Below are positions 1-22,796 of a stretch of 24,000 nucleotides of DNA, piece by piece. Position numbers and translations under genes: made by a program. The notes under the pieces were generated by a model. That model had not been told where the DNA came from, searched no databases, and was given only the letters and a program-made list of their open reading frames with translations. The stretch spans positions 263,644 to 287,643 of the forward strand of contig NZ_AUKI01000020.1 of the NCBI RefSeq assembly GCF_000424665.1, written 5' to 3'. The DNA comes from Salinimicrobium terrae DSM 17865. GTDB lineage: Bacteria; Bacteroidota; Bacteroidia; Flavobacteriales; Flavobacteriaceae. Within the stretch, counting starts at the first letter, position 1; each line of letters starts with the position of its first letter.

Positions 1-1
1 C

Positions 2-850
2 TACTCAAAAATCGCCGAGCAGGGCAAGGCAGAGAATGCTGCCTCCTGCTGTGGCGCGACCACTCCTTCCAATAAGGTTTATAACATCATGATGGACGAC
101 TACACCGGAACCGAAGGGTATATTGAAGATGCCGATCTTGGACTTGGCTGTGGACTTCCTACGCAATACGCCGGGATCAAAAAAGGAGATACAGTGATAG
201 ATCTGGGATCTGGTGCGGGGAATGACTGCTTTGTCGCCAGGCATGAAACAGGAGCTGAAGGAAAGGTTATAGGGATTGATTTTACTCCGGCTATGATACG
301 AAAAGCCCGTATAAATGCTGATAAGTTAGGTTTCAATAACGTCGAATTTCGCGAAGGAGATATTGATGACCTGCCGGTTAATGATAACACTGCAGATGTA
401 ATAGTTAGCAACTGCGTGCTCAATCTCGTACCAGATAAGCCAAAAGTTATTACGGAAATCTTCAGGGTATTAAAACCGGGGGGACACTTCAGCATTTCAG
501 ATATTGTTCTGGTGGGCGATTTACCAGTAGCTTTGCGCGAAGACGCCGAAATGTACGCAGGTTGCGTAGCCGGTGCCATTCAAAAAGGGGATTATTTGCA
601 GTACATTAAAAATGCAGGTTTTAAGAACCTCATCCTTCAAAAAGAAAAACCAATCACCATTCCCGATGATATTCTGTCGAAATATCTTTCAGAAGTAGAA
701 ATTACCGAATTTAAAAAAGGGGAAACCGGAATTTTTAGCATTACCGTTTACGCAGAGAAACCGGGAGTAAAAAAGGAAAAACCAAAAATTAAAATGACCG
801 CCCTGCAAACAGAGGGAGCATGTTGCGCACCGGATTCGGGTTGTTGTTAA
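2..850 (+). CDS. arsM: Arsenite S-adenosylmethionine methyltransferase (ArsM-type); 5' end lies outside the window
   Basis: The frame of the listed 89..850 ORF stays open back to base 2 (YSKIAEQGKAENAASCCGATTPSNKVYNIMMDD...), so the listed ATG is internal. It has the SAM-binding motif VIDLGSGAGND, the N-terminal CC pair and a Cys-rich C terminus (GACCAPDSGCC), all typical of ArsM. Confidence 0.85.
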   Translation, partial: YSKIAEQGKAENAASCCGATTPSNKVYNIMMDDYTGTEGYIEDADLGLGCGLPTQYAGIKKGDTVIDLGSGAGNDCFVARHETGAEGKVIGIDFTPAMIRKARINADKLGFNNVEFREGDIDDLPVNDNTADVIVSNCVLNLVPDKPKVITEIFRVLKPGGHFSISDIVLVGDLPVALREDAEMYAGCVAGAIQKGDYLQYIKNAGFKNLILQKEKPITIPDDILSKYLSEVEITEFKKGETGIFSITVYAEKPGVKKEKPKIKMTALQTEGACCAPDSGCC

Positions 851-949
851 ATGGAAGCCGTCAGTTCCTACTGCCGTCAGTATGAGTAATTTTTTCACGA
901 GCGGAAGCCGGGAAAAAATTATATTGAGCACGGCAGCGAGCACAAAAAA

Positions 950-971
950 AGCAGGCAAGAATTTGCCTGCT
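950..971 (-). terminator. Rho-independent terminator hairpin downstream of the GH97 gene, possibly bidirectional and also serving arsM
   Basis: A perfect 9-bp stem AGCAGGCAA/TTGCCTGCT with a 4-nt loop. An A7 run at 944-950 on the plus strand gives a U7 tail on the minus strand. On the plus strand only TTT follows. Confidence 0.6.
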
Positions 972-997
972 TTCCATCATTTTTGGGAGGTATAGAT

Positions 998-3172
<2,175 letters not shown>

Positions 3173-3255
3173 TTAATAAAATGAATGGCAAATATATGGC
3201 TTCTTCCGAAGAAGGAAATATCTGGACCTATTTTGACAATTGTTATTGGAAAGAA

Positions 3256-3280
3256 ATTAGCCGGGAATTTCCCGGCTAAT
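3256..3280 (-). terminator. Palindromic hairpin downstream of the porin gene
   Basis: ATTAGCCGGGA-att-TCCCGGCTAAT forms an 11-bp perfect stem. On the minus strand it is followed by the T-rich TTTCTTTCC. Confidence 0.5.
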
Positions 3281-3300
3281 ATGATAACTACAAATAAGAT

Positions 3301-4578
3301 TTATAAAGCATTCGGGGAGTCCTGAGGTTTTGTAAAACTAAACAACTTAGGACTAAAGCTCACCATCACCCAGGCCCAGTTCTGCGTTATGGATGCATTC
3401 CCTCCTTTTAGGATCTCAAGTGATTCACTGCCAAACATCTGGGAATAACCAAGATTGATCCCCAAATCCTTCCGCACCTTATATCCCGCTGCAATGTCTA
3501 TTTCTGTCCCAAGGTAATCATCCTGCTCATTTCCGGCAGAATCGGTGATAGTCGCAGCCGATGAGAAAACATGAGGCGTTACAGAAATTTCAAATTTTGA
3601 AGTGACATAGGAAAACTTTCCGTAGAGATCTAAAAGGCCGACAGAATTCTGGTGGTTACCCACATAAAAATAGTCCATATGCCCATTGAAGGCGTGGTTT
3701 GTTCCAAACAGCGGAGTGAATGATTTGAGTTCTCCTGAAGTATCGTTCATATCTGTCCCCGAAAGATATTCGGCTCCCACTCCAGTTACGAAAATATCAG
3801 CCAGTTTGTAATTTAGATTAATGCCTGCATACCATGCAGAAACTTCCCGACCTGTATGACTTCCCGCCTGCCCGTAAGCTCCAACATTACCAAAAAGATC
3901 TCCAGAAACGAAATTGTGAAAGGCTCCATAGGTTTGAATATAATCTACTTCCCTCTCCTGCGTGGCTGCATCAAATTCATAACCGGTATTCATTAGAAGG
4001 AAACTAAAACCAACATTGTTGACGTCCAGATGGTACCAGGCCATTTGAAGGTTTTGATAATTATTTATGCTGTAAGGAACTTCTAACAAAGTTTCTGTCT
4101 CGGCGTTATAGGCTGCAGCAAGATCCAGCCTGTGGTTTGCAGCAGGCTTCCAGGAGACAAGAGCCGCATCATGACTGCGTGCTTGCTGAGCCCAGCCAAC
4201 TTCCCCTAAGATCCTCTGGTTGTCATAGGATAAAACCTGTCTACCTATACGGAAAAGAAAATTTCGACTTGTTTGATACTGGCCATAGGCTTCAAATATT
4301 GAAAAGGAATTATTATCTTCTAAACGCATGGTTGGAGTATCCCCCCAAACACCAATGCTCTGGCCTGAAAATTTCACCTTCAGGTTTTCGTCACCATACC
4401 CAAGAGTAAGACGGGTACGTTGGGACGTATGGGCAGCAGGATCTGCATCCTCCGGTAATAGTGTTTTATATCCATTCCTGAATTCAAACCTTGGTCGCAC
4501 CTGCAGGTCGGCTTCAAAGGTCTGTGAAAATAAGGTTGATGAAAAAAGAAGAGCGAATAAGAAGTAGAATTTATTCAT
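3301..4578 (-). CDS. Alginate-export (AlgE-like) family outer-membrane beta-barrel porin
   Basis: Signal peptide MNKFYFLFALLFSSTLFSQ. The motifs RPRFEFRNG and GEVGWAQQARSHDAAL match my recollection of the Alginate_exp family. The rest alternates in a beta-strand pattern rich in aromatics and Gly. Confidence 0.7.
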   Translation of the reverse strand: MNKFYFLFALLFSSTLFSQTFEADLQVRPRFEFRNGYKTLLPEDADPAAHTSQRTRLTLGYGDENLKVKFSGQSIGVWGDTPTMRLEDNNSFSIFEAYGQYQTSRNFLFRIGRQVLSYDNQRILGEVGWAQQARSHDAALVSWKPAANHRLDLAAAYNAETETLLEVPYSINNYQNLQMAWYHLDVNNVGFSFLLMNTGYEFDAATQEREVDYIQTYGAFHNFVSGDLFGNVGAYGQAGSHTGREVSAWYAGINLNYKLADIFVTGVGAEYLSGTDMNDTSGELKSFTPLFGTNHAFNGHMDYFYVGNHQNSVGLLDLYGKFSYVTSKFEISVTPHVFSSAATITDSAGNEQDDYLGTEIDIAAGYKVRKDLGINLGYSQMFGSESLEILKGGNASITQNWAWVMVSFSPKLFSFTKPQDSPNAL

Positions 4579-4726
4579 TTTTATATAAATTTTCAGCTAC
4601 AAAAGAATCTATTGCTCCTGTTATAAACTATGATTTTTCTCATAATTACATAAAAATTTAAACTCGCCCTCGCAATTAAGAACTATAAAATTTTCATATT
4701 TTTAGCAAACCTTTGCCCCCTCACTT

Positions 4727-5962
4727 ATGAAGCACCTCCTACTGTTTTTAATGATTTCTTTAAGTTCATTTACCGCAGTTACCCAGGAAATAAATACAGA
4801 TAAATTATACTATGAAGCTTTGGAGGAGTATCAAAGTGGCAACTTCAAGAAATCTCTTGTGCTTACGACTACCGCTCTTACTGCCGCTCCTGAATATCAT
4901 GATATAAGAGTACTCCAGATACGGAACAAGTTTGCTTTACAGCTTCTGGAAGAAACTAATGTAGATCTTGAATTTTTACTGAACCGGGCCCCTCATTATG
5001 AAGGGGTAAAATCATTGACTGTTCAACGTCTCCGACAAATGGAATCGCAAACTGCACTACTATTTGCAGATCACCTTCTGGAGATTTATAATGAAGATGC
5101 CGAAATAAACATCATTAAAGCCCGACTCCTGTTGCAATTAAGTAAATCTGAAGAAGCAAGAACGCTAGCAACAAAAATTTTCCAACAATCTGCTCTTAAT
5201 GATGGCCAACGATATGCTTTACATCAAATAATAAACCTCACTGTCAAAAATGCCGTGCAGGTAACGGGACAGTACATTTCTTTTAGCGATGACTATCCCC
5301 GGAATGACCCCTGGTATGTAGTAAGTACAGAATACCAGCACAACTTTTCAAATATGGCGCTCATTGGAAGATTAACCTATTCAGATCGCTCCTATAATGA
5401 TGGAACTTTATATGAAATAGAGGCCTATCCTATTTTTTCCGAGAAATTATATGCCTTTGGTAACGTTGGTTTTCCTGATGGAAGTGTTTTTCCCGAATTT
5501 AGAGCCAGTGCTTCAGCTTTCTATAATTTCGCACCCTCTTTTGAAGCTGAAATAGGATTTAGAAGCTTAACTAATGATAGCAATACCCATTTTATAGGAA
5601 TTGGAGGACTAACCACCTACACCGGGAAATTTTATTTAAATGCAAGAGCTTTTATTGGTCCCGAGCAATTTGAGAAACTGGTTCAGAATTACCAATTCAA
5701 TATTAGATACTACTTAAGCACCCCCGAAAATTACCTTTTTGGAAGGGTGGGTAGCGGTATCTCCCCAGATGATCCTACACTGTACACCCAGGCTCAGGAA
5801 AATCCTGCTTTGGATGCCTGGTATATAAATACCGGAATTAATAAATCCATCGGAATTCATCACGTAATTTCTATTAGCGGCGGAATGCTTTATGAAGATT
5901 TAGCGAATGACAAGAAAGGACAACAGTTATTTGCAAGCCTGGGTTACAGGTATAAATTTTAA
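4727..5962 (+). CDS. Outer-membrane protein with an N-terminal TPR-like helical region and a C-terminal YaiO-like beta-barrel
   Basis: Signal peptide MKHLLLFLMISLSSFTAVTQ. Residues about 25-170 are helical repeats (YYEALEEYQSGNFKKSL...). Residues about 175-411 are Gly/Tyr-rich alternating strands ending in ...GYRYKF, an OMP-type C-terminal Phe. The YaiO assignment is from memory and unverified. Confidence 0.6.
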   Translation: MKHLLLFLMISLSSFTAVTQEINTDKLYYEALEEYQSGNFKKSLVLTTTALTAAPEYHDIRVLQIRNKFALQLLEETNVDLEFLLNRAPHYEGVKSLTVQRLRQMESQTALLFADHLLEIYNEDAEINIIKARLLLQLSKSEEARTLATKIFQQSALNDGQRYALHQIINLTVKNAVQVTGQYISFSDDYPRNDPWYVVSTEYQHNFSNMALIGRLTYSDRSYNDGTLYEIEAYPIFSEKLYAFGNVGFPDGSVFPEFRASASAFYNFAPSFEAEIGFRSLTNDSNTHFIGIGGLTTYTGKFYLNARAFIGPEQFEKLVQNYQFNIRYYLSTPENYLFGRVGSGISPDDPTLYTQAQENPALDAWYINTGINKSIGIHHVISISGGMLYEDLANDKKGQQLFASLGYRYKF

Positions 5963-7401
5963 GAAGAAGCTGAAGTTTCTGTACTAAATCCTTTTCGGGT
6001 CATGGTACCCCAACCCGATTTAATTCCGAAGAGTTTTTTATAAAGTCCCTTAAGCTGCCCAAAGACCAAAACAGGATGAAAAATAAAAGGCTCGAGGTAT
6101 GCTGCAAGTAAAAGCTCTGCAACTTCCCGGGCAGAAGAATAATGCCTGAAATTTAGGATATAAAAGAAAACTGCTACTGAAGAGAAGATGCACCCCAGCA
6201 AATAAACTGCTGTGAACAGTAGTATCGCCGATGGCCAGTCAATGAGCCCGTGATAGCCAAAGAATATTATAAAGATGATCCCTAGAAATTCAACTATGGG
6301 CGCTCCAAATTCAAAGAAGCACCAGTAAGGAAAAAAGATCATTCCCATTTTCCCATACCTGGGATTCATGAAAAGGTAACGATGTAACTTCAGAGTTTCC
6401 CAAAGACCCCTGGTCCATCTATCCCGCTGTTTTACAAAAATGCTGTAGGTATGGGGAACTTCGGTCCAGCAAAGGGTTTCAGGGATATAGACCACTTTGT
6501 ATTTCTTCTTCAGTTTTTCCATATGAACCCGGAGTCGGATACAAAGCTCCAGGTCCTCTCCAACCGTGTTAATGTTGAAACCTCCTACTTCTAATAACCG
6601 GGTGCGGGGATACATACCAAAGGCGCCAGATACCAGCATGAGACCGTTCACTTCTCCCCATCCCATTCGACCTATAAGAAAAGCCCTAATATATTCCACT
6701 ACCTGGGTTGTAGGTAAAAGATCCTTCGGAACTTTTAGCTTTTTAAGGACACCGGACTTAATTTCGGAATCATTTGCAACTCCAATAGCTCCGCCACAGG
6801 CAATAATTTCCCGGTCTCCTTCCTCCAGGTATGGCCGTACCATTTTAAGAATAGCATCCTGCTCTACAATACAGTCGGCATCTGTACAGAGAACAAGCTC
6901 TGTAGTGGCGAAATTAATTCCGCAGTTTATAGCATCACTTCGCCCCCCATTGTTTTTATCAATAATCGTCAGGTGTTTATACTGGATCTCTGTACTTTTA
7001 TATACCGCCCGTACCATAGCAGTGGGAATAGGCTGTACGATAAAGGTAGAATCTATAGTTTTCAGCTTATATTTTTCAATAAGCAAATCCATGGAGTTGT
7101 CTTTGCTCCCATCGTTTACTACAATCAATTCATAAAAAGGATATTGTATAGAAAGAAGGGATTTTACATTTTCAACAATAGTTCGACCCTCGTTAAATGC
7201 AGGAGCAACAAGAGTTACCGAAGGAATATCTGTGGCACTAACAATATCCTTAACCTGCAGGAATCTTGACCGGCGCTTATTGCGTTTAACTGCCATTGCA
7301 GAGAGGACTACACCCAAAAAATAAAATGATAGCAGGAGCATTCCGTAGACAAAGAATAGCCAACTTATTTTTACATAGAAGCTGTACAATAAATCAGTCA
7401 T
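5959..7401 (-). CDS. Processive family-2 glycosyltransferase (PgaC/IcaA/BcsA-like polysaccharide synthase) with N- and C-terminal TM segments
   Basis: It carries VVNDGSKD, CTDADC (DXD), GEDLEL (the TED-type motif) and QRDRWTRG (QxxRW). One N-terminal and several C-terminal hydrophobic helices are present. The start overlaps the upstream gene by 4 nt (ATGA). Confidence 0.85.
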   Translation of the reverse strand: MTDLLYSFYVKISWLFFVYGMLLLSFYFLGVVLSAMAVKRNKRRSRFLQVKDIVSATDIPSVTLVAPAFNEGRTIVENVKSLLSIQYPFYELIVVNDGSKDNSMDLLIEKYKLKTIDSTFIVQPIPTAMVRAVYKSTEIQYKHLTIIDKNNGGRSDAINCGINFATTELVLCTDADCIVEQDAILKMVRPYLEEGDREIIACGGAIGVANDSEIKSGVLKKLKVPKDLLPTTQVVEYIRAFLIGRMGWGEVNGLMLVSGAFGMYPRTRLLEVGGFNINTVGEDLELCIRLRVHMEKLKKKYKVVYIPETLCWTEVPHTYSIFVKQRDRWTRGLWETLKLHRYLFMNPRYGKMGMIFFPYWCFFEFGAPIVEFLGIIFIIFFGYHGLIDWPSAILLFTAVYLLGCIFSSVAVFFYILNFRHYSSAREVAELLLAAYLEPFIFHPVLVFGQLKGLYKKLFGIKSGWGTMTRKGFSTETSASS

Positions 7402-8453
7402 ATAACTTCTTTTAGAGCGTCAATGGTGGAATATTGGCTGTAGTAGAATTCATGCACCAGCTTTTCATGGCCACTGGTCCAGAGAATTTCGGCTGCACTA
7501 AGCTCAAGAATATCATTCCCGGTATGCAAAATGGCATCATAAAATTCCAGATCGGGGGTGTCTGAGATCTGGTGTATATACTTTAGCAACTGTACCTGTT
7601 GTTCGATTGTGGGAACGTTAAAAATCTTAGCTTTTACCTCTTGGAGCTGTTCTCCCGTAAGTTTAAATGAACTAATACAATAAATTGCCGTTTCCCGGCG
7701 ATCAAAACTTTCATGATCAAGGAAACCAATGATATAATCGACTTCTGTAAACAAATTATACTTCCTGATGATCCTCATTAGTAACTCCTGTGCGTAAGGT
7801 CGTTGTGTCGCATAAGTTTTTTTTAAATATTTAATTTTCGGATCGGGATAGAGAGCAAAAAGCTTCTCCACGATCTTGATCTGTTGCCAGAGTGTCATTT
7901 CTCTTTTTAGATAAGGAAGAAATCGAAGACTCTCCCATCCCAGGAAAACAACCATAGCAATCTGCGCCTCCCTTCTTACATAAATATTAGGATTATTACG
8001 TTCCCTTGTCACATCTTTTAGATACTGGGATTGTTCCATTTCATAAATTTCCCTTATTCCTCTTGCCTTCACATACCATTTCCTGCTCTTAAGCTTGGAT
8101 TGGGCTGCTCTATAGGGAGGAATTTGACTAAAAAGAAGACGTAATTTGATGTAATTTTCTCCCAGCATTGTTCTCTGGGCCCTTATCATAAGATCTATAA
8201 GGTACTGGATATTAGCCTTTTTAGAAGGTTTAGCACCTACAGCCTGTAAAGCTCGCTGAACATTTATAAAAGAATATTCCTCCCCCCTGGGTGGGTAAAG
8301 GTACTTTGCTATTTCGTTGGCAAATGTATATTCAATCCTATCCAGTTGTTTTTTTCTAATCTTACGGTATAGCAGGCTAATACCAATAGTACACCACACC
8401 AAAACGAGAAAAAAAAGCAGGATTGAAATAAGCAGAAGTAGTTTTCCCTCCAT
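7398..8453 (-). CDS. Membrane-anchored HEAT/armadillo-like repeat protein of unknown function
   Basis: One N-terminal TM helix (LLLLISILLFFLVLVWCTIGISLL) is followed by an all-helical repeat region. Its motifs resemble HEAT_2/PBS-lyase repeats (KWYVKARGIREIYEM, NIYVRREAQIAMVV). It appears translationally coupled to both neighbours. Confidence 0.5.
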   Translation of the reverse strand: MEGKLLLLISILLFFLVLVWCTIGISLLYRKIRKKQLDRIEYTFANEIAKYLYPPRGEEYSFINVQRALQAVGAKPSKKANIQYLIDLMIRAQRTMLGENYIKLRLLFSQIPPYRAAQSKLKSRKWYVKARGIREIYEMEQSQYLKDVTRERNNPNIYVRREAQIAMVVFLGWESLRFLPYLKREMTLWQQIKIVEKLFALYPDPKIKYLKKTYATQRPYAQELLMRIIRKYNLFTEVDYIIGFLDHESFDRRETAIYCISSFKLTGEQLQEVKAKIFNVPTIEQQVQLLKYIHQISDTPDLEFYDAILHTGNDILELSAAEILWTSGHEKLVHEFYYSQYSTIDALKEVI

Positions 8454-8454
8454 A

Positions 8455-8805
8455 CTATGACAACATTTGTTCTACTTTGTCAAAATTGAAAGGAACTGCA
8501 AAAAAGCCGGATACATGCCCCATCTCCAAAATGTTTTGACGAACTTTCTTCTGCCCCATGCTGGTAATGATTAGCAGGGATTTATGCCGTATGATCTCTT
8601 TTATCTGGTATACGTAATCCAGGGGCGCAATTCCGTCAAATAAAATATCTGAAATAATAATATCGAAGTTTTCATCCTGATCTTCAATATCCAACTGGTC
8701 CAGGCTACGTATTGCTTTACAGCGATAGTCGTGATTTAAGATCATTCGTTCCAGAACCTGTAACAGAATGAGGTCCTGCTGAATTATCAGTGCAGTTTTT
8801 ACCAT
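8455..8805 (-). CDS. Stand-alone response-regulator receiver (REC) domain, atypical
   Basis: A 116-aa CheY-like pattern with a candidate phospho-acceptor in FDIIISD(53)ILF and a Thr in LLIIT(81)S. The acidic pocket is QQD rather than DD/ED, and the conserved Lys-Pro is Val-Pro (FAVPF). Confidence 0.7.
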   Translation of the reverse strand: MVKTALIIQQDLILLQVLERMILNHDYRCKAIRSLDQLDIEDQDENFDIIISDILFDGIAPLDYVYQIKEIIRHKSLLIITSMGQKKVRQNILEMGHVSGFFAVPFNFDKVEQMLS

Positions 8806-8848
8806 ATGAGGCTAAGTAGGGAGTACTGAATTGGGGCTCAGTACCTTA

Positions 8849-8856
8849 CAAATCTA
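8849..8856 (-). promoter_or_regulatory. Candidate Bacteroidota -7 promoter box for the REC-HEAT-GT2 operon
   Basis: The minus strand reads TAGATTTG, an exact match to the TAnnTTTG consensus, 43 nt upstream of the REC ATG. The predicted leader contains a 7-bp hairpin (GTACTGA/TCAGTAC, 8823-8844). Confidence 0.4.
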
Positions 8857-8995
8857 ACAAAAATTAGTTATAAATATGTTAATCCAGTCATTCTTTTTGA
8901 CTGATAAAGAAGTATATACGTTAAACATCTTGTTTATCGGCAGGGTTTTAATCGGATAACAAAGTGGATCTGTAAAATTGAATTGAAATCATCCT

Positions 8996-9919
8996 CTAAC
9001 TTTCAACTATGAAATTAAAAGCAGCATGTTTGTTTTCGACTTTTATTTCTTCTCCTTTATAATCATCAATTCTCTCATCATCTATGTGCATATCCTTACC
9101 AAACCATTTAAACCGAACCTTCTTTACCTTCTTTGAAAAAACAAAATCCTCAAGGAAAATATTTTCATCCTTTTTTAGAAGATCCTGAATATAACTTTCC
9201 AGGTCTTTTCGGGCTTTTTCGGGTACGGCAACCAGTTCAAAACTTCCATCGCCCGTCAGGGCTCCGGGAGCAAGTTCAAAATTGGGACCAATGAACCTGA
9301 TGTTCATTAGTTCCACCAGAAGAAATCTTCCGGTAATTTCTTCTCCATCAGCAATAATTATTGCTTCACATGCCTTGGAGTTTCTTACGATTTCCAATAG
9401 CTCTTGCAACGATTGATTAAGTTCATCATCAGGATCTTCCGGCTCTCCTTCGTTTTTCTTTTTCTTTTCCATTACTTTCAGCAGCTTCGGAAAAATTCCA
9501 AAGCCCAGTCCTTCGATAAAAAATCCTGCTTCCCCCGCACCTTCCACCTGTCCCACATCAAAAGGTTCAATATTCTTAAGTTCATCAAGTGCTTTAATAG
9601 AAAGATTTAAATTTAAAGTGGTAGCAATATTATTAGCTGTGCCCAATGGCAGCACTTGTACAGGGGTTTTTTGAATGGGTGCTCCCACCTTGAGTAATTC
9701 TGCAGCCAGTTTTTGTACCGTGCCGTCACCCCCGGCAAGAAAAATGACATCGGCCTCGTTTCGAGTAAACCGCTCCCAACCCGGTGTATCTGTGGAATAA
9801 TATTTAACCTCATATCCTGCCGCTTCAATTTTTTTTACCAGAGTTTTTTCATCATGTTTCCCAGATCCAGCCGTAGGGTTATGTATAAGAATTGTTTGTT
9901 TCATTACCGTGGTTTCCAA
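8996..9919 (-). CDS. Diacylglycerol-kinase-family lipid kinase (YegS/BmrU-like)
   Basis: ILIHNPTAGSGKH together with the FLAGGDGTV nucleotide-binding motif, and a length of about 300 aa. The true start may be the internal MKQTILIHNP. Confidence 0.85.
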   Translation of the reverse strand: METTVMKQTILIHNPTAGSGKHDEKTLVKKIEAAGYEVKYYSTDTPGWERFTRNEADVIFLAGGDGTVQKLAAELLKVGAPIQKTPVQVLPLGTANNIATTLNLNLSIKALDELKNIEPFDVGQVEGAGEAGFFIEGLGFGIFPKLLKVMEKKKKNEGEPEDPDDELNQSLQELLEIVRNSKACEAIIIADGEEITGRFLLVELMNIRFIGPNFELAPGALTGDGSFELVAVPEKARKDLESYIQDLLKKDENIFLEDFVFSKKVKKVRFKWFGKDMHIDDERIDDYKGEEIKVENKHAAFNFIVES

Positions 9920-10041
9920 TAAAGATAAGATTCCGTTAAGAAGAATATGGCTTCATTAACACAGACTTATAATACTCAGGTTTTATCTTAGTCTAAAGTT
10001 TTGTATTTTAAAATAACAACCACATTAAAGATAATTAACTT

Positions 10042-10770
10042 ATGAAAATACTTGTAACCAATGACGACGGAATTTACAGTCCCGGGCTTTCCTGCCTGGC
10101 TAAATGTGCCTCCAAATACGGGGAAGTAATTATAATGGCTCCCGATGTTGAACAGTCATCTATGGGCCAAGCCATAACCTCTGCTAAGCCTATTACTTAT
10201 AAAAAATCCCCCATCCACTTCGAAGGAATGGAAGCATATAGAGTAAGTGGAACTCCTGCCGATTGTGTCGCTCTGGGAACTCATTTATTTGATGATATAG
10301 ATATTGTCCTTTCGGGTATCAACATAGGATCAAACCTTGGAAATTCGGCTTGGCATTCCGGAACCTTGTCGGCTGCACGACAGGCTGTATTGTTTGGAAT
10401 TAGAGGTGTTGCACTTAGTGTATCAATAGGTGATAATGAACCCGATTTTGATGCCCTGGAACCTTTTGTTGTAGATTCATTAAAAGAGGTGATGCATGAA
10501 TCTTCAATGGAACTCCTTAATATCAACTTCCCAAGAAAACCCGCAGGAGATATTGTCTGGACCTGCCAGTCGGTACGTCACTATGATGGGAAAGTGGTAC
10601 AGCAGGAAGACCCTATGGGTCGCGAGCATTACTGGTTCACCGTCTTCCCCATTGAAGATGTAGAAGAAGGAACAGACAGGTGGGCTGTGAAGCATGGTAA
10701 GACGAGCATCACCCCAATGATCCTGGACCTAACTGATAAAAAAATATACGAGGCGAAAAAGGAGAAATAA
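10042..10770 (+). CDS. surE: 5'/3'-nucleotidase SurE
   Basis: The N terminus MKILVTNDDGIYSPGL is the SurE signature, followed by GINIGSNLG and SGTLSAA motifs. Confidence 0.9.
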   Translation: MKILVTNDDGIYSPGLSCLAKCASKYGEVIIMAPDVEQSSMGQAITSAKPITYKKSPIHFEGMEAYRVSGTPADCVALGTHLFDDIDIVLSGINIGSNLGNSAWHSGTLSAARQAVLFGIRGVALSVSIGDNEPDFDALEPFVVDSLKEVMHESSMELLNINFPRKPAGDIVWTCQSVRHYDGKVVQQEDPMGREHYWFTVFPIEDVEEGTDRWAVKHGKTSITPMILDLTDKKIYEAKKEK

Positions 10771-11711: not shown

Positions 11712-12291
11712 ATGAAAAAATTACTCTTAATTTTGTTTATTCTTCCCTTTTTTTCATGTTCTGTTAATACAGAAGAAAAAAGCTGTTCAAAAAGAATCTT
11801 TTGAAGATAAATTCAGTTTATCACCTACCATTGCGGCCGTTTACTTTGGGAAAATGGGAGAGGGAAATGCTCTTGATAAAAAATTTGCTGGTAATTCAAA
11901 TCCTGGTGGGATCACTATAGCCTACGGCCTCTCCCTGGCTTATCAATTATCGGATAAGATTAAGATCCGCTCCGGGGTAAACAGCCTTAATCTCAGTTCC
12001 AAAACCAGGAATGTGGAAAATAACCTTGCAGGAAATGCCAGCGCATTAGAGGGAAATCCTGCTGGTAATATTCATTATTCCGCCGGATACGGAACTTTAG
12101 ATCAACAACTCGACTTTATTGAGATTCCTCTAGAACTGGAATTCGCTTTAATAGATAAGCAGGTGGGAGTAAGTTTAATTGCAGGTGCCAGTACATTTTT
12201 TCTTCAGGAGAATGAGGTTACCATAAGTACTGCCGGATTCACCGGTAGTTTAGGCCCTGCTAACAACCTGAATAACAGCCTTACTATTTAG
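11712..12291 (+). pseudogene. Outer-membrane beta-barrel lipoprotein gene, frameshifted at an A6 tract and apparently 3'-truncated
   Basis: The ATG at 11712 encodes MKKLLLILFILPFFSCSVNTEEK and then stops at 11802-11804. The adjacent frame is open from 11731 and continues as ...KAVQKESFEDKFSLSPTIAAVYFGKMGEGNALDKKF... to 12291. The switch point is the A6 run at 11776-11781. The product ends in ...NNLNNSLTI, without an OMP-type terminal strand or Phe. Confidence 0.55.
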
Positions 12292-12678
12292 GAATCTTTT
12301 CAAGGGTACGTTTTAAGTTCTAAAAGCTTTACTTGCTTTATTATCAAATTTAGAACAATAAAGATTTCTACAGTCGGTGCTCCTGTGGGGTGAAACTTGA
12401 TCATTTAAAGATAAAAAATTCCGAGGGAAAAATGGAATTATAAATCCTAATAAGGATATTTTATAACAATGATAAAATCTTTTTTTAATACCTTTTTATC
12501 TCTTGTTATTGCTTCACCATTTTATAAGGATTATCAATCAAATCCTGAGGAACCTCTATTAACCCAGAACTTATTTCCAATTAATTTCTAAATTAGATTT
12601 TAATAATTCTTTGCCACATTTGTTTTTCTTTAAAAAGAGATATGGTTGAAATAATTGATTTATAGAAGGTGGGGGTTT

Positions 12679-12754
12679 GTCGAGTAGGTAAAGGGGAATT
12701 TCACCCCTAAACCTCTCACAGAACCGTACGTGAATCTCTCAATTCATACGGCTC
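12679..12754 (-). ncRNA. Group II intron domains V and VI
   Basis: Domain V is GAGCCGTATGAATTGAGAGATTCACGTACGGTTC: 34 nt, with the AGC triad and an AC bulge, and its base is nearly identical to the yeast ai5gamma DV. Domain VI is GAGAGGTTTAGGGG-loop-CCCCTTTACCT[A]CTC, with the bulged A 7 nt from the 3' end. Confidence 0.9.
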
Positions 12755-12769
12755 CTCTCAGCCAAGACT

Positions 12770-14032
12770 TTAAGGTTTAAGCCCTGAATATTGCCAATGT
12801 TCAAACAGGTATGGTTCGAGCCTGCATATTTTCTGTAGATGTCGTAGCGCAAGGACCCACTGCTTCCGCTTGAACCTACGGTACTTATTACGTATCCATT
12901 TTATCAAGCGAATGTGCAATGTTCTAAATAGTTTCTTGAGGCCTCCCAGTCGAAATTTACCGTAGTAGTTTATCCATCCTCTGATTTTAGGCCGCAACAG
13001 AGATGCAATTTTGCTCAATGGGAACTGTACCATTTTATGGATGTTCATCCTGAAGAGCTCTTCATTTATCCTGTTGATGCTTTTCTGACTGATGGCAGGG
13101 GTAAAACCTAGTTTCATTATTCCCCTTATTTTAACTACTCTGGGTTTAAAGGTGTGACCCAGAAAATCGAACTTCTGAAATTTCACTTTAAACCTTGGTC
13201 TTTTCTTCTGATTTCTGCGACAGTACACTACTCTTGTCTTCTCCTGATTCACTTCCAGTTTACACTCTCTGAATCGTCTTTCGATTTCTTCAAGAAGTCG
13301 GTTAGCATGAGGCAAGTGGTAACAATGAACCACAATGTCATCAGCATAACGTTCAAACTGGATATCAGGATAGCGCTTTTGGATCCACTTGTCGAATACA
13401 ATATCCATAAAGATATTAGCTAATACAGGACTAATTACTCCGCCCTGTGGTGTGCCTTTACCATTCGGATTATGCAGCGTTCCATCAGATAATTGCACTG
13501 GAGCCTCCAGCCACCTTTTCACGTACAGCAAAATATGCTTCTCCTGTGTATGGTGCTGAACAGCTTTCAGTAGCAGTTCATGATCAATGTTGTCATAAAA
13601 TCCTTTTATGTCCAAATCAATGACCCAGCTATATCGTAAACAATTTATACGACATTGGCCTAAGGCATCATGTGCAGATTTCCTGGGACGATACCCAAAA
13701 CTGCTTGGACTAAAGGTGTGATCAACAATTGTGTTTAACTGCGATGCAATTACTTGTTGGGCAACCCGATCAACTACAGTGGGAATACCCAAAGGTCTCA
13801 TTTTACCTTTCCCTTTTGGGATTAGTACCTGTCGAACAGGTTTAGGGAAGTAACTCCCACTGGCCATCCTGTTCCATAATGGGTACAGATATTTCCGTGG
13901 TTGACTACTTACTGTTTCAATGGATAATCCATCTACTCCAGCACTCCCTTTGTTGGCTTTTATTCTCTTAAAAGCTTCATTTACCTGCAACCTGCTAATA
14001 GGTTGCGTCTTGTGTTCTTCATTAAAAATCAT
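12770..14032 (-). CDS. Group II intron reverse transcriptase/maturase with no endonuclease domain
   Basis: RT blocks are present (GSAGVDG, RPLGIPTVVDRVAQQ, FGYRPRKSAHDA, DLDIKGFYDNIDH, GTPQGGVISPVLANI, YADDIVV), followed by a maturase X region (RGWINYYG). The 420-aa product ends shortly after X. Confidence 0.95.
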   Translation of the reverse strand: MIFNEEHKTQPISRLQVNEAFKRIKANKGSAGVDGLSIETVSSQPRKYLYPLWNRMASGSYFPKPVRQVLIPKGKGKMRPLGIPTVVDRVAQQVIASQLNTIVDHTFSPSSFGYRPRKSAHDALGQCRINCLRYSWVIDLDIKGFYDNIDHELLLKAVQHHTQEKHILLYVKRWLEAPVQLSDGTLHNPNGKGTPQGGVISPVLANIFMDIVFDKWIQKRYPDIQFERYADDIVVHCYHLPHANRLLEEIERRFRECKLEVNQEKTRVVYCRRNQKKRPRFKVKFQKFDFLGHTFKPRVVKIRGIMKLGFTPAISQKSINRINEELFRMNIHKMVQFPLSKIASLLRPKIRGWINYYGKFRLGGLKKLFRTLHIRLIKWIRNKYRRFKRKQWVLALRHLQKICRLEPYLFEHWQYSGLKP

Positions 14033-14865
14033 CCTTAAATTACTTTAAGTTGTAATACAATAAATGAACATGCTTGAGTGAAGTCCTTCGCTCACAAGAT
14101 GATTAATCTTGTTCTCTGGAGTATTTTCGCTACTACGACTTCATCCGTCCCAATACCTAACGTCGCTACTTTCTGGTTTTTCCGCTTCGGGATTTTCACC
14201 ATTTTTGCTTCTCATTTAGATATTGGTTCTCCTGTTCCTTGATAATGCCTGAGTATGGTTCTTGCCTCCTATATGCCGGGTGTCGTATGGTCAGTAATCA
14301 GGTATCCACCATACTTAATCTATCGGAGCTGCTCTCTCCTCAATTTTGACACCGTAAAGGTCACTTTCGACACGTCCATAGAGGTTCACTTACGTTCAAC
14401 TCCCATACTCTCACCAGATCTTGTCGCTCAATACCTGTTCTCTTAAAACAAGCACCACAAGATGGTTTGAACAATACGCCTGAACATCTTGTTCGATAGG
14501 CCAACATTTTATGAAACGGTACCGTGAGACTTCTAACTTACCATCCAAAAATGGGGTTAGCTCGTTTCTGTTTCTACATAAAATTCTATCATCATTATCA
14601 AAGTTATGTTATCATTTCAATGAACTTTTTAGGTTCTATTGTACTCCCGTGATAACTCAGGACACACAGCAAGAGGAGAACACGCGGAGCGATGTTGTAA
14701 TGGTTCTCCCCCTTTGTTTATAGGACTTCGCATCTTTTACTTTCAAAGACTATTACTAATTTTGCGGCAAATGCTTTGGGAACCCTTATAAATAAAGAAT
14801 TTTTTGCGGCAAAAGTTACTAAAAGCCATTTTTAAAACTATTGTGGAGTTTATAGCCCTGGTATT

Positions 14866-15548: not shown

Positions 15549-16607
15549 TCAAGATTTCACTGCTTTAAGACCTCCTTTCAGGTTGTGCATCTTTTTTTCG
15601 GGAAAGAAAGCTTTTATTATAGAAGTAGCTTCCAAACTTCTCACTCCTGAGGCGCAGTACACCAGCAAATTATCTTCGGAAGCTAATTCGCTGTACCTTT
15701 TTTGTAGCTCCGGAAGGGGAATGTGGAATCCTCCGATATTGTGGATTGCCCGCTCTTTGGCCGTACGAACGTCTAATAACGAATAATTTTCCGGGGTAGA
15801 TTTATATTGCTCATAAGAAAGAGATTCCGAAATGCCAGTCCCGCAGGAAAAATTGATTTCTTTTAATTCCGTTACCACCACATCGGAATTTTTTGAAAAG
15901 GGCAGGATTTTGTTTTGCATCTCAAAAACATCAAAAAGGAGTAATTTCCCTGATAATACATTGCCAATCCCTAAGATTATTTTTAGCACTTCATTCGCCT
16001 GCAGGTTTCCGATGATTCCGGGTAAAATTCCCAAGACACCGACTTCGCTACAGGAAGGCATTTCTTCAGCAGAACCGGGTTCCGGAAAAAGACAGCGGTA
16101 AGTAGGTCCATTCTGGTAATTAAACACCGATACCTGTCCGTCGAACTTAAAAATGGAACCGAGAACCAGAGGCTTTTCAGTTAAAACAGCGGCGTCGTTG
16201 GTCAGGTATTTAGTGGTGAAATTGTCACTTCCCTCAACGATGATATCGTACTCCGAAAATAAATCGTATGCATTTTTCGCCGTCAATCTCTCATTATAAG
16301 CCACTATTTCTATCAAAGAATTCATCTCCTGAAGCCGGTTTTTGGCAGCAATTACTTTTGGCTCCCCTACGTTTTTTTCTGAAAACAGGATCTGCCGCTG
16401 TAAATTTGAACTTTCTACCAGATCATCATCTATTATTCCTATTTTTCCCACTCCGGCGGCAGCAAGATATTGTAAAACGGGGCATCCAAGTCCGCCGGCT
16501 CCTATCACCAGGACCTTTGCCTGCTTCAGTTTCAGTTGTCCTGCTTCACCGATTTCATCGAGAAGTATGTGCCGGAGATAGCGCTGCTTTTCTTTTTCTG
16601 TCAACAT
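15549..16607 (-). CDS. thiF: ThiF/MoeB-type adenylyltransferase fused to a C-terminal rhodanese domain
   Basis: It has RYLRHILL, the VLVIGAGGLGCP Rossmann motif and NLQRQ, plus a C-terminal rhodanese active-site loop, VYCASGVRS. It is the last gene of the thi operon. Confidence 0.85.
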   Translation of the reverse strand: MLTEKEKQRYLRHILLDEIGEAGQLKLKQAKVLVIGAGGLGCPVLQYLAAAGVGKIGIIDDDLVESSNLQRQILFSEKNVGEPKVIAAKNRLQEMNSLIEIVAYNERLTAKNAYDLFSEYDIIVEGSDNFTTKYLTNDAAVLTEKPLVLGSIFKFDGQVSVFNYQNGPTYRCLFPEPGSAEEMPSCSEVGVLGILPGIIGNLQANEVLKIILGIGNVLSGKLLLFDVFEMQNKILPFSKNSDVVVTELKEINFSCGTGISESLSYEQYKSTPENYSLLDVRTAKERAIHNIGGFHIPLPELQKRYSELASEDNLLVYCASGVRSLEATSIIKAFFPEKKMHNLKGGLKAVKS

Positions 16608-16608
16608 A

Positions 16609-17718
16609 TTACCAGCTTTTTTCCCAGTCCTTCCAGACAGGTTCTATCCCGGTTTCAGAAAGCATTTTTGCGATAAATTCTGTACTTCTTTCGTCGGAAA
16701 TTTCGAACTGCTCCAAAGATTGCGGCTCCACCACATAACCTCCGGGATTTGTTTTAGATTCTGCACTCATCGAAGTGATTCCCAGGTGAACGATATTGTT
16801 CCTGAAGATCTCACTTTCCCGGGTGGAAATAGACAATTCCACTTCTTCATCCAGTAATCTGTAAGCACAAATAACCTGAAGCAGGTCGGGATCTGTCATC
16901 TCCACTTTTGGTTCGAGTCCGCCACTGAAAGGCCGTAAGCGAGGAAATGAAATAGAGTACCTCGTTTTCCAGTAGGTCTTTTGCAGATATTTGAGATGTA
17001 AAGCAGTGAAAAAGCTATCGGCTCTCCAGTCTTCGAGTCCGAACAACGCACCAATTCCAATTTTATGGATTCCTGCTCTTCCTAGCCGGTCTGCAGTTTC
17101 CAGCCGATAATCGAAGTTCGACTTTTTTCCTTTCGGGTGATGGACCTTATAGGTTTCCCGATGATATGTTTCCTGATATACCAGTGTGGCATAAAGTCCG
17201 TTTTCTATCAGCTGTTCATATTCATCCTGATCTAACGGCTGAATTTCAATGGAAATATTAGAGAAATAGGGTCTCAATAGTTTAATCGCATTACACATGT
17301 AATCGACGCCCACAGTCTTGTTTGCCTCACCGGTTACGAGCAGAATATGGTCGTATCCTTTTGACTTTAAGAATTTGGCTTCCTTGATTATCTCTGCATA
17401 GCTCAACGTCTTTCTGGGGATTTTATTCGTCATACTGAACCCACAGTAGGTGCAAATATTTTGACATTCATTGCTCAGATACATGGGAGCATACATCTGC
17501 ATCGTATTTCCGAAGCGCTTTTTGGTGATCGTCTTGCTCTGCTGCGCCATTTCTTCCAGAAAAGGCTTTGCGGCAGGAGAGATGAGCGCTTTGAAATCTT
17601 CCAGATCCCTTTTTCTGTACTGCAGTGCAGAACGCACATCGGCTTCTGTTTTTGAGAAAATGCTCTGCAGCACCTCATCCCAGGAATATTCGCTTAAAGT
17701 ATCTTTGAAACTACTCAT
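16609..17718 (-). CDS. thiH: 2-iminoacetate synthase ThiH (radical SAM tyrosine lyase)
   Basis: A radical-SAM CxxxCxxC motif ([10 protein letters not shown]), a length of about 370 aa, and its position between thiG and thiF. Confidence 0.9.
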
Positions 17719-18490
17719 ATAGAAATTGTGTTAACGGACTACTTGCTTCGGCTTGTTGTCTTTGTGGAGCCAGTTTTGCGGTGTAGGCGATTCTTCCTGC
17801 TTCCACAGCGAGTTTAAAGGCTTTTGCTATTTCCACCGGATTGGGAGAAACTGCAATTGCCGTATTTACCAAAACAGCATCGGCGCCTATTTCCATAGCA
17901 TGTGCGGCGTGAGACGGACTCCCGATTCCCGCATCTATAATCACCGGCACGTTGCTTTGTTCAATGATGATCTCCAGGAAATCCAGTGTTTTTAGTCCTT
18001 TGTTGCTGCCAATAGGAGCACCCAGAGGCATTACACACTGCGCGCCCACTTCTTCAAGCCGCTTGCACAAAACCGGATCGGCATGGATGTAGGGCATTAC
18101 CACAAACCCCATTTTTACCAGTTCTTCGCAGGCTTTTAAAGTCTCTATAGGGTCCGGAAGTAAATATTTGGGATCGGGATGAATTTCCACTTTCACCCAA
18201 TTCGTTTCCAGTGCTTCTCTGGCCATTTGGGCAGCAAATAGAGCTTCTTTGGCATCTCGCACGCCCGAAGTATTGGGTAGAAGACTGATGTAAGGATCTT
18301 TTAAGGAAGAAATCATTTGGTCGTCGTCATTTCCCGGTTCCACTCTTTTTAAAGCCACCGTCACCAGTTCACTTTGAGAAGCTAAGATCGCCTGTTGCAT
18401 TACTTCTGAAGAACTGAATTTTCCTGTTCCCGTAAACAAACGGGAAGAAAAGGTTTTGTCTGCTATTTTTAATTGATCTGTGTTGCTCAT
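17711..18490 (-). CDS. thiG: Thiazole synthase ThiG
   Basis: [25 protein letters not shown] and [11 protein letters not shown] motifs. It overlaps thiH by 8 nt. Confidence 0.95.
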
Positions 18491-19122
18491 AATTGTGTCT
18501 CTGAAAATTGTTTGTTAATTTCCTGAAGTACTTTTTCGGGTTGCGGATGAGTGGTTAGCCACCCGGAAACTGCCACTCCGTGCACCCCTATTTCAGCCAA
18601 CGCGGGAATGTCGCTTGGCGTTATCCCGCCAATGGCAATGACCGGAATTGATGTTCCGCCGGCACTAAGGCTGCTTAGCAGCTTCCGGTAACTTTCTGCT
18701 CCCAATACGGGGCTGAGGTTCTTCTTGGTGGTTGTAAAGCGGAAAGGACCCAGGCCAATATAATCTACCTCTTTTTCACAAAGGCTTTCGCAATCCTCAA
18801 GCGTGTTTGCGGTTCCTCCAATGATCTTATCCGGCCCCAGGAGTTTTCTGGCTTCCAAAGGGCAGCTGTCTTCTTTTCCTAAATGAACGCCTGCGGCATT
18901 CACCTTTTTTGCTACCTCCGGAAAGTCATTAATGATCAGTTTCACCTGGAACTTTTCACAAATTTTTTTTGCTGATTTTGCTGTTTCAAGGACCGTCTCA
19001 AAAGATTCATTTTTGAGGCGCAACTGAACCCAGTCTGCCCCGGCGGCACATATCCTGCGAATGTTTTCCAGGTGTTCTGCGGGCGTTTCTCCCTGTGATA
19101 TATAGTGTAAGTTGGAGATCAT
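18487..19122 (-). CDS. thiE: Thiamine-phosphate synthase ThiE
   Basis: LHYISQG..., VQLRLK, GVHLG and IAIGGI motifs, with 4-nt overlaps to both neighbours. Confidence 0.9.
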
Positions 19123-19880
19123 ATGTTATGATATGCTAATAATGTTTTGTTTGATGCTAATACTTTCTCAATGTACTTTTTTGCTTTTCGGGTAGCCTCC
19201 GGAAGTGGATCACCCAAAGCCAAATGTGCTGCAAGTGCTGAGGATAAAACGCATCCGCTACCGTGCTTTTCTGAACAATTGGTTCGTCCCGGCTTAAAGC
19301 TCAAGGTTGCTCCTTCTGTGGTAAACAGTTCGTCCAGTCCAAGTGCATCCGGTCGGTGTCCTCCCTTTAGATACAAATTGGTTTTGCTGCTTATTTTCCG
19401 GATCGTTTCTTCCATAGGCAATTCAGGATAAAATAGTTGCAACTCCTCAAAGTTCGGCGTGACTACAAAAACCTTTTCGAGAATGGATTCGAAATTCTTC
19501 TGAAAATCTTTTGGTTCCTGAAATGAGAATCCGCTACTGGATTTTAAAACCGGGTCCCAAATGATCCTGATGCTTTGGTTTTTAACCAGCAGTTTGTCGA
19601 TCACTTTATACAAAACCTGAAGGTTTTCCACAATTCCGATTTTCACAACCTCTACAGGAAATCTTTCCAGTAAAAGTTCCAGTTGCTGAAGGATAATACC
19701 TTCAGAAGTCCAGTGACAGGCTTCAAATTTTTTATCATTCTGAATCGTATTTGCAGTGTTTACCGCCAATCCATAACATTCCAGGCTTTCAAAGGTCTTG
19801 ACATCAGCCAGCAATCCGGCTCCGCCGGAGGGATCAAATCCGGCAATGCTTAAAACAAACGGTCTTTTAGTGGTAAACAT
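19119..19880 (-). CDS. thiD: Hydroxymethylpyrimidine/phosphomethylpyrimidine kinase ThiD
   Basis: VLSIAGFDPSGGAGLLADVKT and GSGCVLSSALAAHLALG motifs. I place the start at the internal MFTTKRP (19880) rather than the longest ORF (19931), which reduces the overlap with the upstream gene to 14 nt. Confidence 0.9.
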   Translation of the reverse strand: MFTTKRPFVLSIAGFDPSGGAGLLADVKTFESLECYGLAVNTANTIQNDKKFEACHWTSEGIILQQLELLLERFPVEVVKIGIVENLQVLYKVIDKLLVKNQSIRIIWDPVLKSSSGFSFQEPKDFQKNFESILEKVFVVTPNFEELQLFYPELPMEETIRKISSKTNLYLKGGHRPDALGLDELFTTEGATLSFKPGRTNCSEKHGSGCVLSSALAAHLALGDPLPEATRKAKKYIEKVLASNKTLLAYHNI

Positions 19881-20463: not shown

Positions 20464-20475
20464 CTGGATTTCCGT

Positions 20476-22344
<1,869 letters not shown>

Positions 22345-22392
22345 TTAATGTTGATAACTTCTGGCTTCCGGAAAAATTCTTCCGAAGCAATT

Positions 22393-22596
22393 TTATCCTC
22401 CCTGAGTGGCCCTGATAATAAGTACGTTTTCACCTTCGGCCAGTTCACGCCGGGTCCAGTCGCTTTTAGAAATAATCTGATTATTGACAGCAACAGCAAT
22501 CCCTTTTTCAGAAATGTTGAGCTGGGTCAACAGGTCCTGAAGGTTGGATGGTGAATTAAAATTGTGGGCGGTGTTGTTTACGTTTACAGTTATCAT
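22393..22596 (-). CDS. thiS: Sulfur-carrier protein ThiS
   Basis: A 67-aa product, MITVNVNN...IIRATQGG, ending in the diagnostic GG. The listed 122-aa ORF reads through the riboswitch upstream and is not the real gene. Confidence 0.85.
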   Translation of the reverse strand: MITVNVNNTAHNFNSPSNLQDLLTQLNISEKGIAVAVNNQIISKSDWTRRELAEGENVLIIRATQGG

Positions 22597-22787: not shown

Positions 22788-22796
22788 TTACGTTTT

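Follow-up and report, generated by a model that had tools for sequence, protein, structure and literature searches.

A minimal REC-HEAT-GT2 and TPR-YaiO gene module of Salinimicrobium terrae, a probable member of a Bacteroidota-wide system for polysaccharide synthesis and export

To our knowledge, the characterised synthase-dependent exopolysaccharide (EPS) systems of Gram-negative bacteria (cellulose, poly-beta-1,6-GlcNAc or PNAG, alginate, Pel and Nfr) are all switched by cyclic di-GMP (c-di-GMP). Bacteroidota encode few c-di-GMP enzymes, and matrix-polymer synthesis in this phylum is little known. Here, we analysed a stretch of 24,000 nucleotides from Salinimicrobium terrae DSM 17865 (called the window below), in which an operon for a stand-alone receiver-like protein (REC), a HEAT-type membrane protein and a family-2 glycosyltransferase (GT2) converges on a gene for an outer-membrane protein with a TPR-like domain and a YaiO-family barrel. 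The module would work like the Bcs, Pga and Pel systems and is a member of none of them. The locus is, in our view, likely to be a minimal representative of an uncharacterised system, spread across Bacteroidota, for the synthase-dependent synthesis and export of a polysaccharide. In a search of the openly accessible literature, no account was found of a function of YaiO, of the Escherichia coli yai cluster as a system, or of the Bacteroidota module.

The module consists of four genes, which are listed here with a tentative promoter.

4727-5962, plus strand: gene for the secreted outer-membrane protein with TPR-like domain and YaiO-family barrel, open reading frame (ORF) of 411 aa
5959-7401, minus strand: gene for the membrane-embedded GT2, a predicted processive synthase/translocase, ORF of 480 aa
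7398-8453, minus strand: gene for the single-pass HEAT-type membrane protein, ORF of 351 aa
8455-8805, minus strand: gene for the stand-alone receiver-like protein (REC), the first gene of the operon, ORF of 116 aa
8849-8856, minus strand: TAGATTTG, tentative promoter of the three-gene operon, a TAnnTTTG match 44-51 nt upstream of the REC start

The window proteins of 351 aa and 411 aa are 100% identical to NCBI entries from Salinimicrobium terrae. In the window sequence, the REC/HEAT junction reads TAG-T-ATG, which is a 1-nt gap, and the HEAT stop and the GT2 start share an ATGA overlap, which amounts to translational coupling. The four ORFs, their strands and both types of junction are exactly those given in a preliminary description of this DNA. 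The YaiO and GT2 genes are convergent, and their 3' ends share 4 nt. Between the receiver gene and the lipid-kinase gene upstream of it there is a gap of 190 nt, in which TAGATTTG is found. We take TAnnTTTG to be the -7 promoter consensus of Bacteroidota; since the motif is not enriched across the window (18 found, 24.6 expected), this match is suggestive by its position only. A scan for sigma-70 promoters and terminators was uninformative for this genome of Bacteroidota.

We then compared the content of the window with that of the c-di-GMP-dependent systems. Among its ORFs of at least 100 aa, none matched PilZ, GGDEF, EAL, PgaB, PgaD, BcsB, PelD, Alg44 or MshEN, and a riboswitch search of positions 4500-10100, which included the c-di-GMP class, gave no match. 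The absence of PilZ, PgaD, PgaB and any c-di-GMP component, noted in the preliminary description, is thus confirmed within this scope. Hidden c-di-GMP control was rejected for the window, as it has no such riboswitch, PilZ or GGDEF. Neither a PIG-L deacetylase nor an acyltransferase was found in the window.

The linkage of the four genes was explored in other genomes. We searched 185,579 species genomes by pattern for the HEAT-type protein and obtained 61 loci, which belong to ten named Flavobacteriaceae genera (Salinimicrobium, Gillisia, Antarcticibacterium, Salegentibacter, Christiangramia/Gramella, Zunongwangia, Autumnicola, Flagellimonas, Sediminicola and Psychroflexus) and to unclassified metagenome-assembled genomes. 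Their ORFs were searched with the four window proteins; 8 loci were cut by a contig end and 53 could be tested. All four genes occurred together in 51 of these 53 Flavobacteriaceae loci, with the YaiO gene downstream and convergent, as in the window, in 36 and upstream and divergent in 15. The genes that flank the module vary by genus.

Eight distant contexts were also inspected one by one: Chitinophaga skermanii, Lacinutrix neustonica, a Ferruginibacter-like contig, Pedobacter glucosidilyticus, Sphingobacterium thalpophilum and three metagenome contigs. REC, HEAT, GT2 and TPR-YaiO were present in 8/8, in further gene orders; in one context the four genes are co-directional, and in another the YaiO gene lies between REC and HEAT. 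The named genomes span three classes of Bacteroidota, and the window GT2 is 38-45% identical to the GT2s of the distant systems. Because two of the eight look-ups began from the YaiO protein and recovered REC-HEAT-GT2, the linkage is reciprocal. The possibility that the four genes show no conserved linkage in related genomes, which the preliminary description had raised against itself, is therefore not what we found, and chance adjacency was rejected because the linkage is kept through rearranged gene orders.

A profile search with the diverse HEAT alignment (A2) was swamped by the close clade, and A2 proved too diverse for scanning metagenomes; the tighter, distant sub-alignment (A4) worked there and gave 80 further loci, 38 of them with enough flanking sequence. 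In these 38 loci the HEAT gene was followed directly by GT2 in 37, REC was present in all 38 and YaiO in 29. HEAT is likewise followed directly by GT2 in all genome loci that reach as far as GT2, and an overlap of stop and start codons is usual there.

The GT2 carries its catalytic motifs between two hydrophobic blocks. Their conservation was judged in 18 orthologues, and the features are as follows.

7282-7380, minus strand: N-terminal transmembrane block, residues 8-40, by hydropathy
7099-7116, minus strand: NDGSKD, the nucleotide-binding Asp motif of GT2 enzymes, residues 96-101; N96, D97, G98, S99 and D101 invariant
6874-6882, minus strand: DAD, the DxD motif, residues 174-176; aligned with the DxD region of BcsA; invariant
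6553-6561, minus strand: GED, equivalent of the TED (catalytic base) of BcsA, residues 281-283; invariant
6415-6429, minus strand: QRDRW, the QxxRW acceptor-binding motif, residues 325-329; aligned with QRGRW of BcsA; Q, R, R and W invariant
6058-6324, minus strand: C-terminal hydrophobic block of about 3-4 transmembrane helices, residues 360-448, by hydropathy
5962-6048 region, minus strand: C-terminal cytosolic tail motif WG.M.R.GF, residues 452-472; invariant in 18/18 GT2 orthologues

The C-terminal block aligns to the BcsA transmembrane region 395-475 and across the transmembrane regions of hyaluronan synthase (HAS), and the two blocks together presumably form a translocation channel. The WG.M.R.GF tail is a feature of this GT2 subfamily and a candidate partner-binding site. 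Pfam matches over the cut-off were PF00535, PF13641 and PF13632, and the best NCBIfam matches were PgaC_IcaA, XrtG-associated GT2, CelA and NodC. The long PDB alignment of the window protein is to BcsA and spans GED, QRDRW and the transmembrane region. When a profile of the 18 orthologues was compared with the PDB, long matches were obtained only to HAS (query 12-393) and BcsA; other GT2 enzymes matched the short nucleotide-binding motif only, and SpsA the soluble glycosyltransferase domain only. As judged from sequence, the protein thus groups with membrane-embedded processive synthases, as the preliminary description had supposed, and not with a non-processive class that has no transmembrane channel. 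With these motifs and its own transmembrane region, it resembles the synthase of the Bcs system.

PgaC_IcaA was the top NCBIfam match, and the closest E. coli GT2 by BLASTP was PgaC (24% identity, E 9e-26), with YaiP (E 5e-15) and NfrB (E 0.013) farther away. Synthase size and transmembrane layout are also similar to those of PgaABCD, and a TPR protein with a porin is the exporter logic in both. It may be explained that the locus is a diverged Pga/Ica PNAG system with equivalents of PgaC and PgaA. However, the score against the PgaC_IcaA equivalog model TIGR03937 was 129.2 bits, far under the cut-off of 422.3, and the window has neither PgaD nor a PgaB-type deacetylase. PgaA and PgaD had no BLASTP match among the module proteins, the porin being of the YaiO family, and the partners of the synthase are the HEAT and REC proteins instead of PgaD and c-di-GMP. 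We therefore regard a diverged Pga/Ica system as quite improbable.

The candidate exporter has two domains, as seen in an AlphaFold2 (AF2) model.

4796-5239, plus strand: TPR-like helical domain of nine helices, residues 24-171
5249-5959, plus strand: 14-stranded beta-barrel, residues 175-411, with a short loop helix at 350-358 and the end ...YRYKF

The model was built on 57 homologues and has a predicted local distance difference test (pLDDT) value of 89.7; it consists of a signal-peptide helix, the nine helices and the 14 strands, and the chain of the barrel ends on an aromatic residue. Over residues 175-411 the YaiO profiles scored far above their cut-offs (PF19413, 149.3 bits against 23.9; TIGR04390, 101.2 bits against 32), and the NCBI annotation already gives the 411-aa protein a YaiO-family name. 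Profile matches of the N-terminal domain were weak (TPR_19); homologues carry TPR_19, TPR_16 or TPR_14. In a Foldseek comparison with the PDB, E. coli BcsC ranked first (E 2.7e-10) and PelB second (E 3.7e-9), with PgaA and AlgE lower in the list, and the barrel alone superposed best on OmpG (TM-score 0.60-0.63). The secreted protein of TPR-like repeats and barrel postulated in the preliminary description is thus supported by model and profiles, and the barrel falls within the YaiO family.

With its TPR domain at the N-terminus and its barrel at the C-terminus, the protein is laid out like BcsC. Unlike Bcs, the module has a YaiO-family barrel with 14 predicted strands (the barrels of PgaA, BcsC and PelB are 16-stranded) and a far shorter TPR domain of about 150 aa, and its synthase is accompanied by a receiver and a HEAT-type membrane protein in place of PilZ, BcsB or any c-di-GMP element. 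The Pel system is similar in its TPR and barrel protein PelB, and PelE, an inner-membrane protein with a helical-repeat domain and a scaffold role, has a likeness to the HEAT-type protein. However, the Pel synthase PelF is a GT4 of the cytosol, unlike the membrane GT2 of the module, c-di-GMP controls Pel through PelD, and no Pel family matches were found in the window module. NfrA-NfrB of E. coli also pairs, by annotation, a GT2 synthase with an outer-membrane TPR and barrel protein, but NfrB is activated by c-di-GMP and only marginally similar, and NfrA had no BLASTP match.

E. coli K-12 has yaiS-yaiP-yaiX-yaiO next to one another on a single strand, so the proximity of yaiO to the GT2 gene yaiP, as given in the preliminary description, was borne out. 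Both loci link a GT2 gene to a gene for a barrel that matches PF19413 over the cut-off (E. coli YaiO, 92.7 bits). They differ in that E. coli YaiO has 257 aa and no TPR domain, and in that the E. coli cluster contains a PIG-L deacetylase and an acyltransferase and no HEAT or REC protein. The two GT2s are no more than 26% identical over the glycosyltransferase domain, and the barrels have no direct similarity, so they are related through the family profile only.

Most relatives have a fuller gene set than the window. All 15 divergent loci add an LtaS/OpgB-like 'Sulfatase'-family gene and a conserved protein of ~390 aa; in the 38 metagenome loci the LtaS-like gene was found in 31 and the ~390-aa protein in 24. 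In 18/38 the LtaS/OpgB-like 'Sulfatase' domain is fused to GT2 in one polypeptide of ~1200 aa, which was confirmed with Pfam. A PAS hybrid histidine kinase or a REC-Hpt-REC protein often adjoins the fuller systems. Examples, by locus, are given below.

L083, 9020-12607: GT2/LtaS-like fusion directly after the HEAT-type gene
L089, 9017-12631: GT2/LtaS-like fusion directly after the HEAT-type gene
L003, 6511-7662: ~390-aa protein with N-terminal membrane anchor, adjoining the YaiO gene
L068, 14426-15610: ~390-aa protein, likewise anchored and adjoining YaiO
L070, 10749-11930: ~390-aa protein, likewise anchored and adjoining YaiO
L072, 11794-12972: ~390-aa protein, likewise anchored and adjoining YaiO
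L073, 13230-14426: ~390-aa protein, likewise anchored and adjoining YaiO

The ~390-aa protein has no NCBIfam match, no PDB sequence match and no recorded Pfam match. As all these accessory genes (LtaS/OpgB-like, ~390-aa protein, hybrid kinase) are absent from the window, the word 'minimal' in the preliminary description is accurate.

LtaS, OpgB, EptA and BcsG have a catalytic domain that acts outside the cytoplasm. The GT2-LtaS-like fusions therefore suggest that the product reaches the periplasm, and they are the strongest indirect support for such a route. BcsG is found in producers of phosphoethanolamine cellulose, and the transferase of the alkaline phosphatase superfamily that adjoins the synthase or is fused to it in the fuller relatives may be analogous to BcsG. 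The same enzymes could be explained in another way. The phosphoglycerol-transferase-type enzymes of the LtaS/OpgB kind and a GDPD in Pedobacter recall the chemistry of osmoregulated periplasmic glucans (OPG) and lipoteichoic acid, so the GT2 might make a glycan that stays in the periplasm or is anchored to a membrane (a glucan of the OPG kind, a glycolipid or a polymer resembling lipoteichoic acid) instead of a secreted EPS, and the YaiO protein might be a porin or an anchor of other role. Some well-flanked loci without YaiO and a weak Glyco_transf_21 match of GT2 are consistent with this. However, the YaiO protein has a periplasmic TPR domain in the N-to-C order of BcsC, PgaA and PelB, and the structural ranking puts BcsC and PelB first. 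Linkage to YaiO persists through at least four gene orders, synthases of the OpgH type are far larger than this GT2, which matched the OpgH (MdoH) model only weakly (E 3e-4), and an LtaS-like gene is wholly missing from the minimal module of the window. A periplasmic or anchored product is thus unlikely, and it is the main rival to synthesis and export of a secreted polysaccharide.

Some further observations concern these relatives. In L070 (Pedobacter glucosidilyticus), a GDPD glycerophosphodiester phosphodiesterase gene (11917-12798) lies within the cluster and beside the LtaS-like gene, which hints at glycerophosphate chemistry on the polymer. L109, L110, L112, L132 and L134 contain HEAT, a GT2/Sulfatase fusion and REC, with no YaiO gene within 8 kb; the ~390-aa protein is also present in L109, L110, L112 and L132, and not in L134. 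In L042 (Christiangramia antarctica), a second, divergent set of hybrid kinase, REC, HEAT and GT2 (1-7306, minus strand) lies directly beside a module of the window type.

The HEAT-type protein had no Pfam match of its own, and its homologues carry HEAT_2 (PF13646) or HEAT (PF02985) with up to 67 bits. The family is large, with 767 clusters at 50% identity at E<=1e-3 and 289 at E<=1e-10. Two features were located in the window.

8370-8441, minus strand: transmembrane segment, about residues 5-28, by hydropathy, with the K/R-rich YRKIRKKQLDR after it
7860-7988, minus strand: most conserved HEAT core, residues 156-198, NIYVRREAQIAMV...GWESLRFLPYL...LWQQIKIVEKL

The AF2 model (pLDDT 88.7) has a long helix at 2-52 and then 17 helices, which form an all-alpha solenoid. 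Foldseek found only generic or designed ARM/HEAT solenoids for it (E about 1e-3, TM-score 0.28-0.45), which gave no functional lead. Columns of the core are invariant or near-invariant in alignments A1, A2 and A4, and residues 156-198 are a candidate interaction surface. Longer homologues have the domain order signal peptide, LysM or SPOR, transmembrane segment, K/R-rich stretch and HEAT. From this order and the K/R-rich stretch after the transmembrane segment, the N-terminus is predicted to lie outside and the solenoid in the cytoplasm, on the same side as the glycosyltransferase domain and the receiver.

The 116-aa protein scored 29.2 bits against PF00072, just under the cut-off of 30.2, and orthologues in distant loci match PF00072 without a weak mark. 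In an alignment with CheY, the window receiver has Q9/Q10 at D12/D13, D53 at D57, M83 at T87 and V104 at K109, with T81 and S82 just upstream of M83. Among 66 aligned receivers, which come almost wholly from the clade of the window, Q stands at D12 in 61/66, E or Q at D13 in 59/66 and V or I at K109 in 55/66, and D57 is kept in 64/66. Receivers of the window clade are degenerate in sequence: the phospho-Asp is kept, and the Mg-binding acidic pair and K109 are lost. In contrast, distant receivers from the metagenome loci (57 distinct) are canonical, with E/D, D, D, S/T and K in 56-57/57. The ancestral system thus looks phosphorelay-controlled, and the pseudo-receiver of the marine Flavobacteriaceae looks derived.

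Because the receiver is canonical in most relatives and a hybrid kinase or a REC-Hpt-REC protein is often alongside, synthesis there is probably switched by a His-Asp phosphorelay. In the window clade, the receiver most likely acts as a phosphorylation-independent subunit, which would place control at the window locus at transcription or with another ligand. Concerning the activation role that the preliminary description had suggested for the receiver and the HEAT-like protein, activation of the phosphorylation type probably fits the fuller relatives and not the window locus.

It could also be that the HEAT-type protein and the receiver merely share the operon and form a signalling pair of their own, perhaps one reporting the state of the envelope to other targets, and are not regulators of the synthase. 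HEAT solenoids are generic scaffolds, the receiver is degenerate in the window clade, and a GT2-HEAT-REC interaction is something that we infer, all of which would suit such a pair. However, the HEAT gene immediately precedes GT2 in nearly all metagenome loci and in all uncut genome loci, stop and start codons usually overlap at that junction, REC accompanies every well-flanked metagenome locus, and neither the HEAT protein nor REC has an output domain of its own. We regard a separate pair as highly improbable, the least probable of the alternatives considered.

With synthesis and export of a secreted polysaccharide as the preferred reading, the following mechanism is proposed. On the cytoplasmic side, the GT2 would use a UDP-sugar to polymerise a beta-linked glycan, which it would thread through its own transmembrane channel. 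Because of the affinity of GT2 to PgaC/IcaA, NodC, chitin synthase and HAS, the polymer is most likely one of N-acetylhexosamine (HexNAc) or glucose, as far as sequence comparison indicates. It would then cross the periplasm along the TPR-like domain and exit through the 14-stranded YaiO-type barrel. The cytoplasmic HEAT solenoid, anchored in the membrane, would serve as a scaffold between the small receiver and the synthase, and translational coupling, which is present in the sequence, would keep it in a fixed proportion to the synthase. The HEAT and REC genes hold the genomic position of a c-di-GMP receptor or co-polymerase, and their products may replace the c-di-GMP receptors PilZ, PgaD, PelD or MshEN of the known systems; this functional equivalence is proposed from position and partners.

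Several results weigh against this reading. Two of the 53 genome loci have REC-HEAT-GT2 and no YaiO gene within the locus (roughly 8 kb examined), and 9/38 well-flanked metagenome loci have no YaiO gene within roughly 8 kb. QxxRW also occurs in some non-processive or lipid-directed GT2s, such as ceramide glucosyltransferase. For the exporter, the TM-scores to BcsC and PelB are modest (0.43-0.46, root-mean-square deviation about 11 A), the 14 predicted strands are fewer than those of the 16-18-strand exporters, and no direct similarity to E. coli YaiO was detected by BLASTP (E 1.2) or hhalign (probability 0.1). Moreover, the observations concern anatomy, indicators of topology, affinities to known families, linkage, fusions and the state of the receiver; the polymer and its sugar, processivity, contacts among GT2, HEAT and REC, the barrel as export route and a role in regulation are what we infer from them, and this too counts against the reading.

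In its widest form, the proposal is that REC-HEAT-GT2 with TPR-YaiO constitutes an unrecognised class of synthase-dependent EPS system, seen so far in Bacteroidota only and in most versions joined by the ~390-aa protein and an LtaS/OpgB-like transferase, fused or adjacent, in which a His-Asp phosphorelay, acting through a membrane-anchored HEAT scaffold, replaces c-di-GMP as post-translational switch of the synthase and a 14-stranded YaiO barrel serves as the pore. It would be a first function for the YaiO family, including the orphan yaiSPXO of E. coli, and the marine Flavobacteriaceae version would be stripped-down with a pseudo-receiver. We put this forward tentatively, with somewhat less than even confidence. 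The module proteins already carry generic public names; it appears that neither the system with its extended gene set nor its link to a phosphorelay nor the degenerate receiver has been described.

The 767-cluster HEAT family and the four-gene linkage, kept through the shuffling of gene order in three classes, make this a candidate for a major matrix or capsule system of the phylum. If the proposal is true, a two-component phosphorelay acting through a HEAT scaffold would be a c-di-GMP-independent control of a polysaccharide synthase, and the YaiO outer-membrane family would have its first proposed function. The GT2-LtaS-like fusions would be candidates for making a phospho-substituted polymer, and the degenerate receiver of the marine clade would be a natural experiment on the loss of such a switch. 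It would overturn no principle; it would be a well-defined and widely distributed candidate, testable in culturable Flavobacteriaceae, Chitinophaga or Pedobacter.

Three genes adjoin the module or lie close to it in the window.

998-3169, minus strand: GH97 glycoside hydrolase
3301-4578, minus strand: Alginate_exp-family (AlgE-like) porin, adjoining the YaiO gene
8996-9919, minus strand: YegS/DAGK_cat-type lipid kinase, immediately preceding the operon in the same orientation

The GH97 hydrolase and the AlgE-like porin were rejected as parts of the module, as they stand beside YaiO only in Salinimicrobium loci (the porin in L004-L009). The lipid kinase was considered as a diacylglycerol-recycling partner and rejected, because even sister species do not keep it at this position and no LtaS-like gene is present in the window.

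Farther away, the window contains a group II intron at 12679-14509 on the minus strand (Rfam RF00029 at 12679-12756 and RF01999 at 14403-14509), with a reverse transcriptase/maturase ORF (RVT_1 and GIIM) at 12770-14032. A thiamine operon occupies 15549-22761 on the minus strand and comprises thiS, thiC, two TMP-TENI genes (thiamine-phosphate synthase), a Phos_pyr_kin gene (phosphomethylpyrimidine kinase), thiG, a radical-SAM/BATS gene and thiF-rhodanese. It is preceded by a thiamine pyrophosphate (TPP) riboswitch at 22693-22792 on the minus strand (75 bits), and a promoter-like motif, TACATTTG, is found at 22797-22804, just upstream of this riboswitch.

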